DNA of 31,452 bases from the IMG/VR virus record IMGVR_UViG_2713896902_000003, positions 1 through 31,452 of that record; one strand, given 5' to 3'. Below are positions 1,422-8,115 of this stretch, piece after piece. The number at the start of each line of letters is the position of its first letter. Within the stretch, counting starts at the first letter, position 1. The translations under genes and the position numbers were made by a program. Under the pieces are notes generated by a model that saw only the letters and a program-made list of their open reading frames with translations, was not told the DNA's origin and ran no database searches. The DNA is from a virus (Duplodnaviria > Heunggongvirae > Uroviricota > Caudoviricetes).

Positions 1422-3755
1422 TTAAAAATCAGCCGGATTCGGGATCAGTTTTTGCCAGATTGCTGAAACTTGTTTTGCTTGGTGACGGGCGTCATCCAGT
1501 GCATTGTGGGGCACACCTTCGAATGGAATAGCCATTCTGACATCAAAGCCAATGGAATTTCCCAGTTCAACAATTGTGCGTACATCGCGATCGTTGCAGT
1601 AACGCCACGGGCAGGGGAGTCCCTGTCGTTCATATGAACGGCGTAAAATCACGTTGTCGAAATTGGCTCCATTTCCCCAGACCTGAACAAAAAATTCGCA
1701 GGAGTTTTCCGCAATAAATTCCCGCAATTGCAGCAGAGCATCATCTAACGGGATTTCATCGGTCAGAATGGCAGATTGCGCTTCGCGTGATTGTTTCAGC
1801 CACCACTTTATTGTTTGTCTGTCGATGATTCCGCCAGCAGTTTCCAGATCGATAGCTTTACTGAATTCAGGCCCCATATCTCCGGTCTGCGGATCGAAAA
1901 ATATTGCGCCTATTGAGATAATCGTGGCGTCGGGATTTTTTCCCATTGTTTCCAGGTCGATCATCAGGTGGCGCTGCATTTTGCTGGTGGATGTATTAAT
2001 TTGATGGTCGTTCACCTTAATTATGGAATTTGCCGTTTCGCCAGTTTTATGAGCGCTATCGTGGTGCTGAGCGCTGCCAGCGTTCTCCTTGTGCAGATGT
2101 TCAGCGCCTTCCATTTCCTCCGGATCTTTTTCCTGAGATTCATCCAGATTTTCTTCATCGAATGTTTCCTGGTATGTTGCGTTGCCCATCACTGGGCCAC
2201 AATCAGGGCAGTTGCCGCCGCCAGTCTGACCGCAGGCGGTGCAGGTTTTTTCTGATTCCTGTCGTGTCTCTGACTCGTTTTGTCGCGCATTTTGACTGTT
2301 TTGTTCAGCTTTTTGCTGGCTCTGGTAAACTGAATCGCAAGTCTGGATCCCATCAACCCATTTCGGATCATTCGGGTCGCTAATCCCTTCAACAAATTCT
2401 CCGCGACAGGCAGCCAGCACTTTGTCTGCATCGACAGAATTTTTGGGCGGAATGTTTTTCCGTGCTTCATGGAGTTCTGCCCGTAGTTCCTGATATTTCG
2501 CATCAACAGAATTTACCTGTGGCTGAGCATCCATCGACTGCGTGTCCTGATGATGTTCAGTTGTATCCGGTTCCGCTGTTTCAGGCGTTGCCTGTTTATC
2601 TTCCAGGATATCTTTTTCCGGTGTATGTCGTGCAGCAGCAAGAGTTTCCTTGCTGGGGTTCTCGTGATCAGTCTCCGTTAAGTGGGCGTTGATATACTCC
2701 TGAAGGCGTCCCGGGTAGAGATAAAGTTCAGGGTGAGCACTTCGGATAAGTGCAAAATTCGCGGCGCGGGAATAATCCAGAATACCCGGGGTTGCGCGAA
2801 GTGCTGCGGACCATTCTTTGAACGGACTTTCTTTCTTCCGGACGACTTCTTTTGCGCGACGATAAACGCTGCCCGGGATTTCATAAATATTAAAATCAAT
2901 CGGAAGTGTGGCCGCTGCAATCTCCACATCCAGTGTATCGAGGGTGTGTACTAAATTCGGATTGCGATCGGTTTTGTTCCCACCGCCAGCATTAGCACCG
3001 GAAGCCGTGCGGGTGATGCGTGAAACACGATTTCCTTTCATCCACTCTTTTGTCAGCAGACCACGATCGGTGTAGTCGGCGCCCAGGTATGCTTCGAAAA
3101 AAGCAGTTATCAGTCCCAGATCTGAATTACCAGGATTAGGGAAAACTTTGTCAGTGTCACGAACCAGTTTGTGGAGATCGCGAATCTCCAGCGGTTTGAG
3201 TTGCGCTGCTTTATTTGAGATGGCCAGCGCTGTAACTGCGGGGAGTTTTTCATCCTGTGTGTTATGTAATGCGCGCAGTTCTTCCCGTGAAACGTGCGTT
3301 ATCGGTTTTTCGCTGCTGTGCTGTGCCAGCCAGCGAACAGGCAGAATCTGACCTGAAATCGGGAGTAGCATATTCTCCTCAATCTCAGTCATATCTTCGC
3401 CGTTGACGTTGGTATTGTCAGTGCTGGCTGGTTTATCCTGAACAGAGGGGGAAGGGGCGATAAATACCATTGTGATGCCATCTTCCCCGCCTTTTTCATA
3501 GCGGTTGCAGAATTCAGTATCAAACACGCCTTCTGGCGGAAGGTCGTCAACAACGGGCAAATTGACGCGGACGGGTTTTTTAAAGTCGTCCTCATCATAA
3601 TTGTTATCATCCATTGCGGTAATACAGCGGGAGACAGCAACAGATAATTTTTTTGCTGTAGTCCAGAAAAAACCGCCTTTGATGCCGAGACGTTTTCTGA
3701 CTTTGTCATTTTTTGCTTCGCAATATAGTGCAAATTCTTCTTTATCAGTGCTCAT
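1422..3755 (-). CDS. Putative exonuclease, 777 aa; C-terminal DnaQ-like (DEDD) 3'-5' exonuclease domain, N-terminal two-thirds uncharacterized
   Basis: Long ORF; C-terminal ~190 aa carry exonuclease motifs (MIDLETMG Exo I-like D-x-E, later HNALDDA with His/Asp); a four-Cys cluster [16 protein letters not shown] lies upstream of the nuclease domain. Sits where lambda exo or Rac recE lies; related prophage proteins are often annotated exodeoxyribonuclease VIII. Confidence 0.6.
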
Positions 3756-5278: not shown

Positions 5279-5698
5279 TTATGATGCGTTTTGTGTTTTC
5301 TTTTTACGGATTTCTTCGTAGATCATATTGTAATACTGTTTTTTCTCTTCAAGAGTTTTTAGTAAGTTATCCGCTTCACTTTCTGGCAGTTCGTCTAAGA
5401 GATCTAAAAAAATACGTTGTCGTGGCGTTAGAACCCTTGTTTCATAATTGGAGGCTGCGTTCGTTGATGATGAAACGATACCATCCATCCATCCTCGGGG
5501 TAACCCAAAGGACTCTTCGATAATCTCCACCATATCATCAGCGATCCGTTTTTTTCCTTTTTTCCCCTCTGGATACAACATTCTTGATACATAAGAAGGC
5601 TCGCGACCGATCTTTCTGGCCACGTTAACCGCTTTACCATCGCATTTCTCATCACGAATTTTGATGAGTTGCTGTCGTCTAAATTCATATTTGTCCAT
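5279..5698 (-). CDS. Prophage repressor, DicA/RacR-like (HTH, no LexA-type peptidase domain), 139 aa
   Basis: Divergent from a Cro-like gene with operator palindromes on both sides; N-terminal HTH-like segment (AVNVARKIGREPSYVSRML); C-terminal LTPRQRIFLDLLDELPESEADNLL resembles the DicA C-terminus as recalled; too short for an S24 autopeptidase domain. Confidence 0.65.
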   Translation of the reverse strand: MDKYEFRRQQLIKIRDEKCDGKAVNVARKIGREPSYVSRMLYPEGKKGKKRIADDMVEIIEESFGLPRGWMDGIVSSSTNAASNYETRVLTPRQRIFLDLLDELPESEADNLLKTLEEKKQYYNMIYEEIRKKKTQNAS

Positions 5699-5799: not shown

Positions 5800-6081
5800 A
5801 TGGAAGAATTAAGAATGTTTCTCAATTCTCTTTCGTCAGATGAACAGCGTATGTTTGCATGTGAGTGTAGTACTAGCATCGGTTATCTAAGAAAGGCATT
5901 GAGTAAAGGTCAAGTGTTAGGGGCATCGTTATGTGTCCTTATTGAGCGAGCCAGTAATGGTGAAGTTACACGTCAGCAACTAAGGCCTTTTGATTGGATG
6001 AATATTTGGCCCGAGCTGGAAGACACCAAAACGTTAACACAACCACTTTCTAGGAGCTTGATTCATGAAAATCAAGCATGA
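5800..6081 (+). CDS. Cro/YdaS-like HTH transcriptional regulator, 93 aa
   Basis: Small ORF divergent from the repressor; RBS GGAG upstream; HTH-like segment FACECSTSIGYLRKALSKGQ; followed by a YdaT-like gene as in Rac-type prophages. Confidence 0.6.
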   Translation: MEELRMFLNSLSSDEQRMFACECSTSIGYLRKALSKGQVLGASLCVLIERASNGEVTRQQLRPFDWMNIWPELEDTKTLTQPLSRSLIHENQA

Positions 6082-6490
6082 GCACATCCGCATGGCGATG
6101 AATGCCTGGGCGCGTCCTGATGGCGAAAAAGTTCCGGCAGCTGGAATAACCCGGGCTTATTTTGAGTTGGGTATGACGTTTCCTGAACTGTATGACGACA
6201 GCCATCCGGAAGCCCTGGCTCGCAATACCCAGAAAATTTTCCGCTGGGTAGAGAAAGACACCCCTGATGCTGTTGAAAAAATTCAGGCGCTGTTACCAGC
6301 GATCGAAAAGGCAATGCCACCTCTGCTGGTGGCCCGAATGCGCAGCCACAGTTCAGCCTGGTTTCGGGAGCTGGTAGAGACGCGGGAACGACTGGTGAGA
6401 GACGCTGATGATTTTGTCGCAGTGGCGATCGCAGGTTTCAACCAGATGAATCGTGGTGGCCCGGCAGGAAATGCCGTGGCGGTACATTGA
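6065..6490 (+). CDS. YdaT-like protein, 141 aa
   Basis: Overlaps the upstream cro-like gene; N-terminus MKIKHEHI matches my recollection of E. coli Rac YdaT; the YdaS-YdaT pairing is consistent. Confidence 0.55.
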   Translation: MKIKHEHIRMAMNAWARPDGEKVPAAGITRAYFELGMTFPELYDDSHPEALARNTQKIFRWVEKDTPDAVEKIQALLPAIEKAMPPLLVARMRSHSSAWFRELVETRERLVRDADDFVAVAIAGFNQMNRGGPAGNAVAVH

Positions 6491-6561: not shown

Positions 6562-7653
6562 ATGGCTAACGCCTGGCTCAGATTATGGCATGACATGCCA
6601 AATGACCCTAAGTGGCGAACAATTTCAAGGGTGTCAGGACAGCCAATCGCAACGGTGATGGCGGTGTATATCCACCTTCTGGTTAGCGCGTCACGAAATG
6701 TCACGACATGTCACGGTGTGTCACTACGTGGTCACATTGATGTCACGACGGAAGATTTAGCAAGTGCACTTGATGTAACGGAAGAGGTAATTGATTCAAT
6801 TTTGCAGGCAATGCAGGGGCGGGTGCTTGATGGAGATTTAATCACTGGATGGGAAAAACGCCAAGTACTGAAAGAGGACAACGGCAATATTTCGCAAACC
6901 GCAAAATCTCCGGCAGAGCGCAAGAGGGCGCAGAGAGAGAGGGAAAGAAAGCGGGAACAAAATGGCGATTGTCACGGAGCGTCACGAAATGTCACGCACA
7001 TGTCACGACGAGTCACGACAGATAAAGATACAGATAAAGATACAGATCAAGAAGATCAAAACACTATGGTCCATGGCGTAAAAAACGCCACGAACCAGGC
7101 AGGGGATGTTCAGACCGTCAATCCTGGTCAGCCAGCAGGCACGACACCGGAAGCCGATTCAGCGTATGCGCTGAAAGCCGATTCGGGCGCTGTGCAGCAT
7201 GCGATGACCGCAAGGCCGGAACAATCACACCAACTGCAGCAACCTGAAGCCGATTCCGCCATTCAGCGGGAAGCCGATCGGGTAGTCCCGGAAAACACCG
7301 GGCAGCCTGTGGGACGAGTGGATTATCCGGATGTGTTCGAACAGGTCTGGCTGGAATACCCGTTGCGTGCCGGGGCAAACCCGAAGAAATCCGCTTTCAG
7401 TGCCTGGAAGGCCAGATTACGCGAGGGGGTGCCACCAGAGGTCATGCTGGATGGAGTGAGGCGTTACGCAAGATACCTGGCGGCTACCGGGAAAACAGGA
7501 ACGGAGTTTGTTCAGCGAGCGACGACGTTTTTCGGCCCTGACCGGAATTTTGAAAACCCCTGGTTGCTCCCGGTAAGCGGCACGAACAACCAGCGTTGTG
7601 TGAATCATATTTCTGAACCGGACACTGAAATCCCGCCGGGATTCAGGGGGTGA
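6562..7653 (+). CDS. Replication initiation protein candidate (YdaU/DUF1376-like N-terminus), about 363 aa, with origin-like iterons inside the gene
   Basis: Track ORF 6556..7653; ATG at 6562 preferred (RBS AGAGGTGAG upstream). N-terminal WLRLWHDMPNDPKW motif is typical of DUF1376 replication-associated phage proteins as recalled; lies where lambda O lies; contains iteron clusters. Confidence 0.6.
   Translation: MANAWLRLWHDMPNDPKWRTISRVSGQPIATVMAVYIHLLVSASRNVTTCHGVSLRGHIDVTTEDLASALDVTEEVIDSILQAMQGRVLDGDLITGWEKRQVLKEDNGNISQTAKSPAERKRAQRERERKREQNGDCHGASRNVTHMSRRVTTDKDTDKDTDQEDQNTMVHGVKNATNQAGDVQTVNPGQPAGTTPEADSAYALKADSGAVQHAMTARPEQSHQLQQPEADSAIQREADRVVPENTGQPVGRVDYPDVFEQVWLEYPLRAGANPKKSAFSAWKARLREGVPPEVMLDGVRRYARYLAATGKTGTEFVQRATTFFGPDRNFENPWLLPVSGTNNQRCVNHISEPDTEIPPGFRG
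6690..6750 (+). repeat. Iteron cluster 1: six GTCAC(G/T)-containing direct repeats at 10-11 bp spacing
   Basis: Read directly: gtcacgaaatgtcacgacatgtcacggtgtgtcactacgtggtcacattgatgtcacgacg, inside the replication gene. Confidence 0.7.
6971..7044 (+). repeat. Iteron cluster 2 (five GTCACG repeats at 10-bp spacing, 6971-7017) followed by AT-rich tandem repeat gataaagataca x2 (7021-7044)
   Basis: Read directly: gtcacggagcgtcacgaaatgtcacgcacatgtcacgacgagtcacgaca then gataaagatacagataaagataca; the arrangement resembles lambda ori (iterons plus AT-rich region inside gene O). Confidence 0.65.
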
Positions 7654-7674
7654 GAATTGCTTCTGTGGAGTCTG

Positions 7675-7788: not shown

Positions 7789-7914
7789 CGCAACATGCAG
7801 CAGGCGTATAAAGTTATGCAAAGAGAGAACAGACGGTGCAGTTAATTATCAGGAGTTGTGTAATTGTAGCAAAAAGTAAAAGATATTGTGGATTCTGGAA
7901 ATGAGGGAGGGGCG

Positions 7915-8115
7915 ATGTGCGAAATTGTGGTGTTAATTAAAATAGCGTTAACGATTGGTTGTATTGCTGCTGTTGTCTTTGGATTGATTGCATGTGTCAC
8001 TAGAAAAAATCCTTTATGTTTCATTAATTCATTGTCTGTAATGAAGTTTTTGGTGGCACTAATAGCCTACATATGGTTTCTTTGTTTTCTTTTACCACCA
8101 TGGGAGTGTTCATGA
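7915..8115 (+). CDS. Small membrane protein, 66 aa, two predicted transmembrane helices
   Basis: Track ORF 7888..8115; ATG at 7915 preferred because of the strong RBS GAGGGAGGGG 3 nt upstream; two hydrophobic stretches (IVVLIKIALTIGCIAAVVFGLIA and FLVALIAYIWFLCFLL); in an AT-rich moron. Confidence 0.5.
   Translation: MCEIVVLIKIALTIGCIAAVVFGLIACVTRKNPLCFINSLSVMKFLVALIAYIWFLCFLLPPWECS

Follow-up and report, generated by a model that had tools for sequence, protein, structure and literature searches.

A probable replication origin of two short-iteron arrays and an A-rich tract inside the initiator gene of a lambdoid prophage

Replication origins that lie inside the gene for their own initiator, with iterons followed by an AT-rich tract, are already well known. 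In phage SPP1 the origin oriL lies within gene 38, and in phage lambda a palindrome flanks the AT-rich region of ori. The lambda origin occupies the linker-coding part of initiator gene O, where initiator-binding repeats precede the AT-rich tract; iteron number varies among lambdoid phages (4 in lambda, 6 in Stx phages), and the minimal unwinding-competent fragment consists of two iterons plus the AT-rich region (PMC7466680). The SPP1 replisome organizer, G38P, binds its origin and starts theta replication (PMC5615212). Here we analyse a 31,452-nucleotide stretch of Caudoviricetes DNA (virus record IMGVR_UViG_2713896902_000003; termed the window below), and describe, within its replication-initiator (‘replisome organizer’) gene of 363 amino acids (aa) at 6562..7653 on the + strand, two arrays of short phased repeats and an A-rich tract that together quite probably form the replication origin of the prophage. 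The locus is distinctive in its short units at one-turn spacing, in having two co-evolving arrays of which one lies in the sequence coding for the DNA-binding domain, in a widely shared (AGATAA)n tract, and in a DnaT-like protein tail within a module that has no loader gene.

The pentamer GTCAC occurs 11 times on the + strand within 6690-7016, split into two arrays. Array 1 (6690..6747, + strand) consists of six GTCAC(G/T/A) units at 6690, 6700, 6710, 6720, 6731 and 6742, spaced by 10, 10, 10, 11 and 11 bp. Array 2 (6971..7017, + strand) consists of five GTCACG units at 6971, 6981, 6991, 7002 and 7012, spaced by 10, 10, 11 and 10 bp, and its start lies 281 bp from that of array 1. Nine of the 11 copies read GTCACG, the others being GTCACT (6720) and GTCACA (6731); the minus strand of the initiator gene has zero copies of GTCAC. 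Outside the arrays the rest of the 31.4-kb window holds 28 copies, counting both strands, from which ∼0.16 would be expected per 355 nt of one strand; the Poisson probability of at least 11 in such a stretch is ∼4e-17. The total for the window (39) is not enriched, and therefore it is the clustering that constitutes the signal. Tandem Repeats Finder detects both arrays, and no further GTCACG cluster was found anywhere in the 31-kb window. The period of 10-11 bp is not a multiple of 3, so that each copy falls in a different frame; copies are translated in all three reading frames, and the array-coded peptides include SRNVT (aa 44-48 and 141-145), CHGVS (aa 50-54) and CHGAS (aa 137-141). A sequence-only reading of the window had claimed 11 GTCAC(G) copies at helical-turn spacing, in clusters of six and five ∼280 bp apart, embedded in a replication gene on which they impose the peptides SRNVT and CHGVS, and had likened the arrangement to lambda ori in gene O. 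These claims hold up: all copies were located and the peptides found, the host open reading frame (ORF) is a phrog_3729 initiator, and the architecture resembles that of lambda in its repeats, tract, palindrome and linker position.

Array 2 is directly adjoined by an A-rich, purine-skewed tract (7018..7062, + strand), a candidate DNA-unwinding element composed of 26 A, 7 G, 6 T and 6 C. It consists of ACAGATAAAGAT repeated 2.9 times (7018-7052 by Tandem Repeats Finder) and then CAAGAAGATCAAAAC, and codes for TDKDTDKDTDQEDQN, which is predicted to be disordered. The least stable 40-mer of the gene, 7022-7061, falls here, at -43.4 kcal/mol against a mean of -56.9 (standard deviation 3.7), that is, 3.6 standard deviations below; GC content dips locally and AT skew is +0.5. 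The AT-rich tandem repeat of the sequence-only reading, gataaagataca twice at 7021-7044, is present, being the ACAGATAAAGAT repeat in another register, but the tract is A-rich and purine-skewed rather than simply AT-rich. The gene has three GATC (Dam) sites, two of which, at 7045 and 7054, lie in the tract; Dam methylation or SeqA might influence this putative unwinding element. Immediately 3′ of it is an imperfect palindrome, TGGTCCATGGCGT-AAAAA-ACGCCACGAACCA (7067..7097; 11 of 13 positions complementary), which is kept in the relative PhiR5_2 (2511-2541 of locus L003) with one compensatory change. Many distant relatives (e.g. L001, L128, L133 and L106) have CCCCCC-N3-4-GGGGGG or similar palindromes at the same position. 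A family-wide test for palindromes after the tract gave a modest result, with a median background percentile of 0.31 and stems of at least 7 in 19 of 73 loci. No DnaA boxes were found in or adjoining the arrays or tract, and scans for promoters and terminators inside the initiator gene returned consensus-level matches only.

The initiator gene begins at ATG 6562, with GAGGTG upstream, and is an intact ORF. Its product matches phrog_3729 (‘replication initiation protein’) end to end in a PHROG search (E 4e-250), an assignment at annotation level that stands for a predicted function. In the AlphaFold2 prediction the N-terminal domain (aa 1-105) is confident and leads into a long basic helix (aa 117-148), a region predicted to be disordered (aa 159-270) and a C-terminal domain of four helices (aa 258-323). 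The part coded by array 1 is aa 43-62, a predicted beta-hairpin of the N-terminal domain between helices 29-45 and 63-70; that coded by array 2 is aa 137-152, where the basic helix ends. In structure comparison the predicted N-terminal domain has a winged-helix fold resembling the N-terminal domain of DnaD and plasmid RepA. Pfam returned no family at E <= 0.01 for the window protein, the lambda O family (Phage_rep_O) included; TIGR01714 reached 18.1 bits where its curated cut-off is 49.8 (E 0.0024); PF09681 matched one of 66 homologues (E 3e-4) and not the window protein; and PHROGs labelled ‘replisome organizer’ match it weakly. Kinship with the N-terminal domain of the replisome organizers (PF09681/TIGR01714) would be remote at best.

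The last 22 residues (NNQRCVNHISEPDTEIPPGFRG; 7585..7650, + strand) resemble the C-terminal tail of host DnaT by both phmmer and NCBIfam. Searched against PDB, phmmer hits DnaT entries 2ru8, 6aep and 9zbt with query residues 340/342/343-363 (whole-sequence E 0.017-0.054), and the NCBIfam DnaT model is matched at positions 156-179 of 179 (E 0.0013). The homology is limited to the last 21-24 residues: it is this tail alone that the window protein shares with Escherichia coli DnaT, whose domains are unmatched in it, and the PF17948 DnaT domain, found in 2 of 66 homologues, is absent from the window protein. In DnaT the C-terminal domain forms filaments on single-stranded DNA at the helicase-loading site (PMC13377028). 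The tail of the window protein is a candidate contact with the host helicase-loading machinery.

The likeness to lambda extends from the phased repeats, low-stability A-rich tract and imperfect palindrome to the placing of array 2 and tract in the linker-coding part, the variable iteron number, and the genetic context, in which repressor, cro and a cII-like gene precede the initiator. Unlike in lambda, the initiator has no detectable homology to O, and no P-like or DnaC-like loader gene follows it; the units are cores of 6-8 bp repeated directly every 10-11 bp, whereas lambda iterons are ∼19 bp long with internal symmetry; and there are two arrays, one of them inside the sequence coding for the DNA-binding domain. 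The replisome organizers of SPP1 and lactococcal phages (PF09681/TIGR01714) are linked to the window protein by the NCBI label ‘phage replisome organizer’ on its E. coli homologues, by weak PHROG matches and by the DnaD-like predicted fold, but sequence similarity is below threshold, and SPP1 has its own loader G39P and helicase G40P where the prophage apparently has neither. Iteron plasmids with winged-helix Rep proteins (P1, F, pPS10 and pSK41 RepA) differ in having iterons of 17-22 bp outside the rep frame, whereas the 10-11 bp units of the window lie within the reading frame and on an integrating phage.

Two further systems share the 3′ part of the module and differ in the 5′ part. The ydaU gene of the Rac prophage (2620-3477 of L160, which is E. 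coli K-12 NC_000913.3 1418500-1424500) encodes a DnaT-like tail (VNTVSLPDSAIPPGFRG, ending PPGFRG), and its linker has repeats of its own, TGTTCAAAC at 3012 and 3045 with variants, then AATAAAGATACAGATAAAGATCT and two C7 runs (3133 and 3145). Its N-terminal domain is annotated DUF1376 and on inspection does not resemble that of the window protein, and it has no GTCAC. The sequence-only reading had suggested a comparison with Rac-type prophages; K-12 Rac ydaU proves to be a gene of another type, with a different N-terminal domain and repeats but with the A-rich tract and tail in common with the window gene. By the same layout, the Rac origin oriJ likely lies in ydaU. PhiR5_2 (L003 2441-2500) has only the C-terminal half in common with the window protein, its O protein ending in the same DnaT-like tail; joined to another N-terminal domain are two copies of GCCCCTT 11 bp apart and then a purine tract (CAGGAA)n, which looks like the same origin layout on a third type of N-terminal domain. 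Since they are found with different recognition modules in Rac ydaU and PhiR5_2, the tract and C-terminal part behave as a shared cassette.

We compared ∼70 homologous loci from E. coli, Pseudomonas, Aeromonas and Ralstonia phages, from beta- and alpha-proteobacterial prophages and from a few other metagenome-assembled genomes (MAGs), the distant homologues coming from metagenomes and from 68 loci found by scanning a single genome of each species. The sole constant gene across loci is the initiator; genes up- and downstream vary. Phages phita81A (Pseudomonas) and pAEv1818 (Aeromonas), at ∼65% nucleotide identity, have GTCACG at both places, in 4+4 and 4+3 copies, with array 2 followed directly by AGATAAAGATA; the N-terminal domain is ∼69% identical among the E. 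coli, Pseudomonas and Aeromonas phages. More widely, arrays were counted in fixed-position windows in 72 loci, drawn from gamma-, beta- and alpha-proteobacteria and a handful of other MAGs; in 55 of them each array holds two or more copies of the 6-mer that is commonest in the gene. The sequence of this 6-mer varies: CGAACGC(A) in many beta-/alpha-proteobacterial and acidobacterial loci, GTAACG(C) in Pantoea, Enterobacter and others, GCAACG in 5+4 copies in Ralstonia phage Firinga (36% protein identity), and GTGACG, GGAACG and AACGCC each in single lineages. Array 1 is found in most homologues at the same place, with 3-6 copies of lineage-specific sequence, and within each lineage the two arrays share one repeat unit. 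The arrays do not extend beyond the initiator gene: ∼4.7 kb of sequence around it contain 0-8 copies of the 6-mer, both strands counted.

Copy number could be followed by alignment in 80 close relatives, near-identical E. coli copies from viral contigs that are informative for copy-number polymorphism only. Of these, 74 have 4+5 iterons and the rest 4+4, 3+5 or 4+6, against 6+5 in the window; Escherichia albertii locus L090 has the same length variant as the window. Relative to the common E. coli allele, the window has a 21-bp in-frame insertion, ACATGTCACGGTGTGTCACTA (6706..6726, + strand; aa TCHGVSL), that adds two iterons (10+11 bp). Copy number shifts by whole repeats and always in frame.

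In the great majority of homologues array 2 is followed directly by an A-rich tract. The 36 nt 3′ of the last iteron, chosen purely by position, have in 65 loci a median AT content of 0.67 and purine content of 0.75, against a median GC of 0.57 for the loci; they rank among the AT-richest 36-mers of their own locus, in the top 5% in 39 of the 65 and in the top 1% in 25. AGATAAAGATACAGATAAAGA persists in hosts of 61-69% GC and occurs in Rac ydaU too, and the (AGATAA/AGATAC)n tract is kept in hosts of 60-69% GC. Array 2 and tract are found without array 1 in, for instance, L124 (seven copies), L129, L142, L144, L153 and the Manatee Spring phage (L159), and Ventosimonas and Entomomonas loci have two degenerate units and then a long (AGATAA)n run. 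To the sequence-only reading, functional homologues lacking the repeats would have counted against an origin. This test mostly failed to refute it: homologues without the repeats are the exception, seen in one small clade from one MAG and in one cyanophage.

Phased clustered repeats, an adjoining easily melted tract and a position inside the initiator gene are features of origins of this kind, and on these grounds we think it quite probable that the arrays and tract are the prophage replication origin. Array 2, probably the core initiator-binding array, would with the tract make up the core origin, and array 1 is probably accessory, because several lineages keep array 2 and tract alone, matching the minimal lambda fragment. 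Upon induction, the early rightward transcript would yield the 363-aa initiator, whose N-terminal winged-helix domain would bind the GTCACG iterons. Because of the 10-11 bp phasing all sites lie on one face of the helix, so that bound protomers could oligomerise along each array, and might bridge the two. The array-2 complex would then strain and open the A-rich tract, and the C-terminal helical domain with the DnaT-like tail would recruit host DnaB/DnaC, a step proposed because no helicase or loader gene is found among the downstream ORFs screened. Array 1 may enhance or loop the complex, or may control copy number in the manner of auxiliary plasmid iteron arrays. Thus we infer protein-iteron binding, unwinding, helicase recruitment and a division of labour between the arrays; recruitment is the weakest of these, because the role of the extreme tail of DnaT is not established in PMC13377028.

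Several observations weigh against the origin assignment. Array 1 is missing in several lineages, which makes its role uncertain, and the iteron cores are far shorter than those of lambda. Four loci of one beta-proteobacterial MAG (L138, L140, L143 and L147) and the Microcystis phage Mwe-JY25 (L158) have neither iterons nor tract. Repeat types track the phylogeny of the N-terminal domain, and part of the concordance between arrays is therefore shared ancestry. Mutual information between residues and iterons picked mostly iteron-coded residues, with none informative outside those segments. In the literature on GTCACG iterons, on iterons of prophage replisome organizers and on oriJ/ydaU, we found no description of this origin or family. 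The linkers of the five loci without repeats are rich in Pro, Ala and Val, and the presence of four copies in one MAG suggests a diverged or domesticated subfamily.

Four other explanations were weighed. The DNA repeats could have arisen as a by-product if recurring peptides (SRNVT, CHG.S, DKDT) were favoured in the protein, as might be thought from the high conservation of the N-terminal domain (∼69%) and from the commonness of DK/DT-rich linkers; a period that puts each copy in a different frame already speaks against this. Permuting synonymous codons with the protein and codon usage kept gives the window gene a mean of 2.9 GTCACG and a maximum of 6, against 9 observed, and 35 of 72 loci lie above all 500 permutations, in a test that is conservative because the repeats' own codons are reused. 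When the window, phita81A and pAEv1818 are compared, the hexamers are invariant whereas spacers and encoded residues vary. Among 141 diverse representatives, 56 have a peptide of at least 4 residues (SRNVT, NATER, NASER, TQCNA and others) common to the array-1 segment and the linker, where equal-length control segments give 3 and 0; hairpin and linker thus change together for no protein-level reason, a concerted change that shared DNA-binding specificity explains. The tract, finally, keeps A/T-ending codons in hosts of 60-69% GC. The repeats are not dictated by the protein sequence; by these comparisons they appear to be under DNA-level selection and to co-evolve with the initiator lineage, and we regard the by-product explanation as extremely unlikely. 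Somewhat less improbable, though still very unlikely, is that the arrays bind another factor: a phage regulator (cII/YdaT-like or Cro-like), a partition protein of the R1 parC type, or a host protein. Phased short direct repeats in two clusters do resemble ParR/parC-type centromeres, the repeats of R1 parC being 11 bp long, and a YdaT-like gene lies just upstream of the initiator in the window and in L088. Against this, loci that retain the arrays vary in the genes around them, no partition genes occur among the neighbours screened or annotated, and the arrays and tract have no DnaA box in or beside them. A conserved host factor is unlikely because repeat sequences differ between prophages of related hosts (GTCACG and GTAACG in enterobacteria, GTCACG and CGAACG in Pseudomonas).

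The arrays might instead bind the initiator for autoregulation, titration or handcuffing only, with initiation elsewhere in the prophage. Iteron plasmids such as P1 have a second array with a control role, and array 1 has no adjoining A-rich tract and is dispensable in some lineages. Yet array 2 is coupled in the great majority of loci to a low-stability tract, the hallmark of an unwinding site; the window offers no other GTCACG cluster from which to initiate; and the analogous elements of lambda (PMC7466680) and SPP1 (PMC5615212) are origins. Array 1 could have a purely regulatory or titrating role, but array 2 with the tract could not, and for the locus as a whole we hold such a role improbable. 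The remaining explanation concerns the (AGATAA/AGATAC)n tract, which might be mainly a microhomology junction for shuffling N- and C-terminal modules and not an unwinding element. Homology between the window and PhiR5_2 breaks at the tract (the match runs from query 559, about window 7058), the tract is common to the otherwise unrelated Rac ydaU, and C-terminal domains vary widely among homologues of the N-terminal domain. A junction alone leaves unexplained why the tract always abuts the last iteron, coincides with the stability minimum and is asymmetric between strands, and we give it little credence, about as little as a foreign binding factor; the two roles, recombination junction and unwinding element, are compatible. 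We also weighed a packaging site, phase variation and RNA structure and set them aside, given that the arrays lie in a replication gene, that they change only in frame and by whole units, and that direct repeats do not pair.

A more speculative extension of the origin assignment, which we think doubtful, is a modular portable origin. A specificity module, made up of the winged-helix domain and its own iterons, one array of which sits in the sequence coding for that domain, would be coupled to a general-purpose cassette for opening and loading. The cassette would comprise the (AGATAA/AGATAC)n tract, the palindrome or C-run, and the C-terminal domain with the DnaT-like tail, and would be common to unrelated initiators such as Rac YdaU. 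It would be recognised in single-stranded form, either by the C-terminal part or by loading factors of the host. New origin specificities or incompatibility types would arise from recombination at the tract, and array 1 would loop or control copy number. In a stronger version, the hairpin that recognises the array-1 iterons would itself be coded by them; this version is disfavoured, as L129 and L124 pair one hairpin type with another iteron type.

The origin so assigned lies in a lambdoid prophage with the usual early-right operon, as the gene order shows. Upstream of the initiator are a repressor gene (5279-5698, minus strand), a Cro/YdaS-like gene (5800-6081) and, immediately before the initiator, a cII/YdaT-like gene (6065-6490). 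To the left of the repressor are genes for a RecE-like exonuclease and an integrase, and to the right of the initiator HNH, RusA and Q genes. The ORF screen that found no helicase or loader gene 3′ of the initiator covered 4.7 kb downstream. The segment 7654-8241 has 31-43% GC and small ORFs only, including a hydrophobic 75-aa ORF (7888-8115), and homology with other E. coli copies stops at ∼7651-7662, a mosaic junction.

The initiator gene is found at 90-96% identity in 2467 of 5426 complete E. coli genomes (∼45%), annotated ‘phage replisome organizer’ at NCBI, with up to five matching places in each genome. Many database entries for the protein are ‘partial’, ending in or just past the linker; the partial entries and multiple places are consistent with assembly breaks at a multi-copy prophage module. 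The family of the N-terminal domain numbers 4177 cluster representatives (50% identity clusters, E <= 1e-3). The domain occurs in just 24 deposited phage genomes, and classical model phages are not among these; Evi and Tritos, both viable, have the gene, Tritos without an adjoining loader gene. Other arrangements of the domain were seen. In P0047, P0073, P0094 and P0112 the N-terminal domain (with SRNVTRGH) is fused to an HNH endonuclease domain that replaces the linker and C-terminal domain, and in L086 a separate HNH gene (2696-3001) lies directly upstream of the initiator. The homologues in L136 (Serratia) and L151 (Pantoea) have an extra segment of ∼100 aa (YVYYVATTDGDVVRVGISRNPWAR...) after the N-terminal domain, ∼nt 320-640 from the ATG at 2501, with palindromic ACTACG/CGTAGT repeats and the DK/TD-rich tract shifted downstream; it may be an inserted mobile domain.

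By pinning the probable origin to 6971-7062, with an accessory array at 6690-6747, the analysis provides a testable ori for common prophages of E. coli, Shigella, Pseudomonas and other proteobacteria. It also yields a rule for annotating origins of this family: NNNACG(C) units every 10-11 bp, and then (AGATAA)n. The GTCACG, GTAACG, CGAACGC and GCAACG variants are material for studying the evolution of initiator-iteron recognition and prophage incompatibility, and the DnaT-like tail suggests that phages without a loader of their own may use the helicase-loading machinery of the host.

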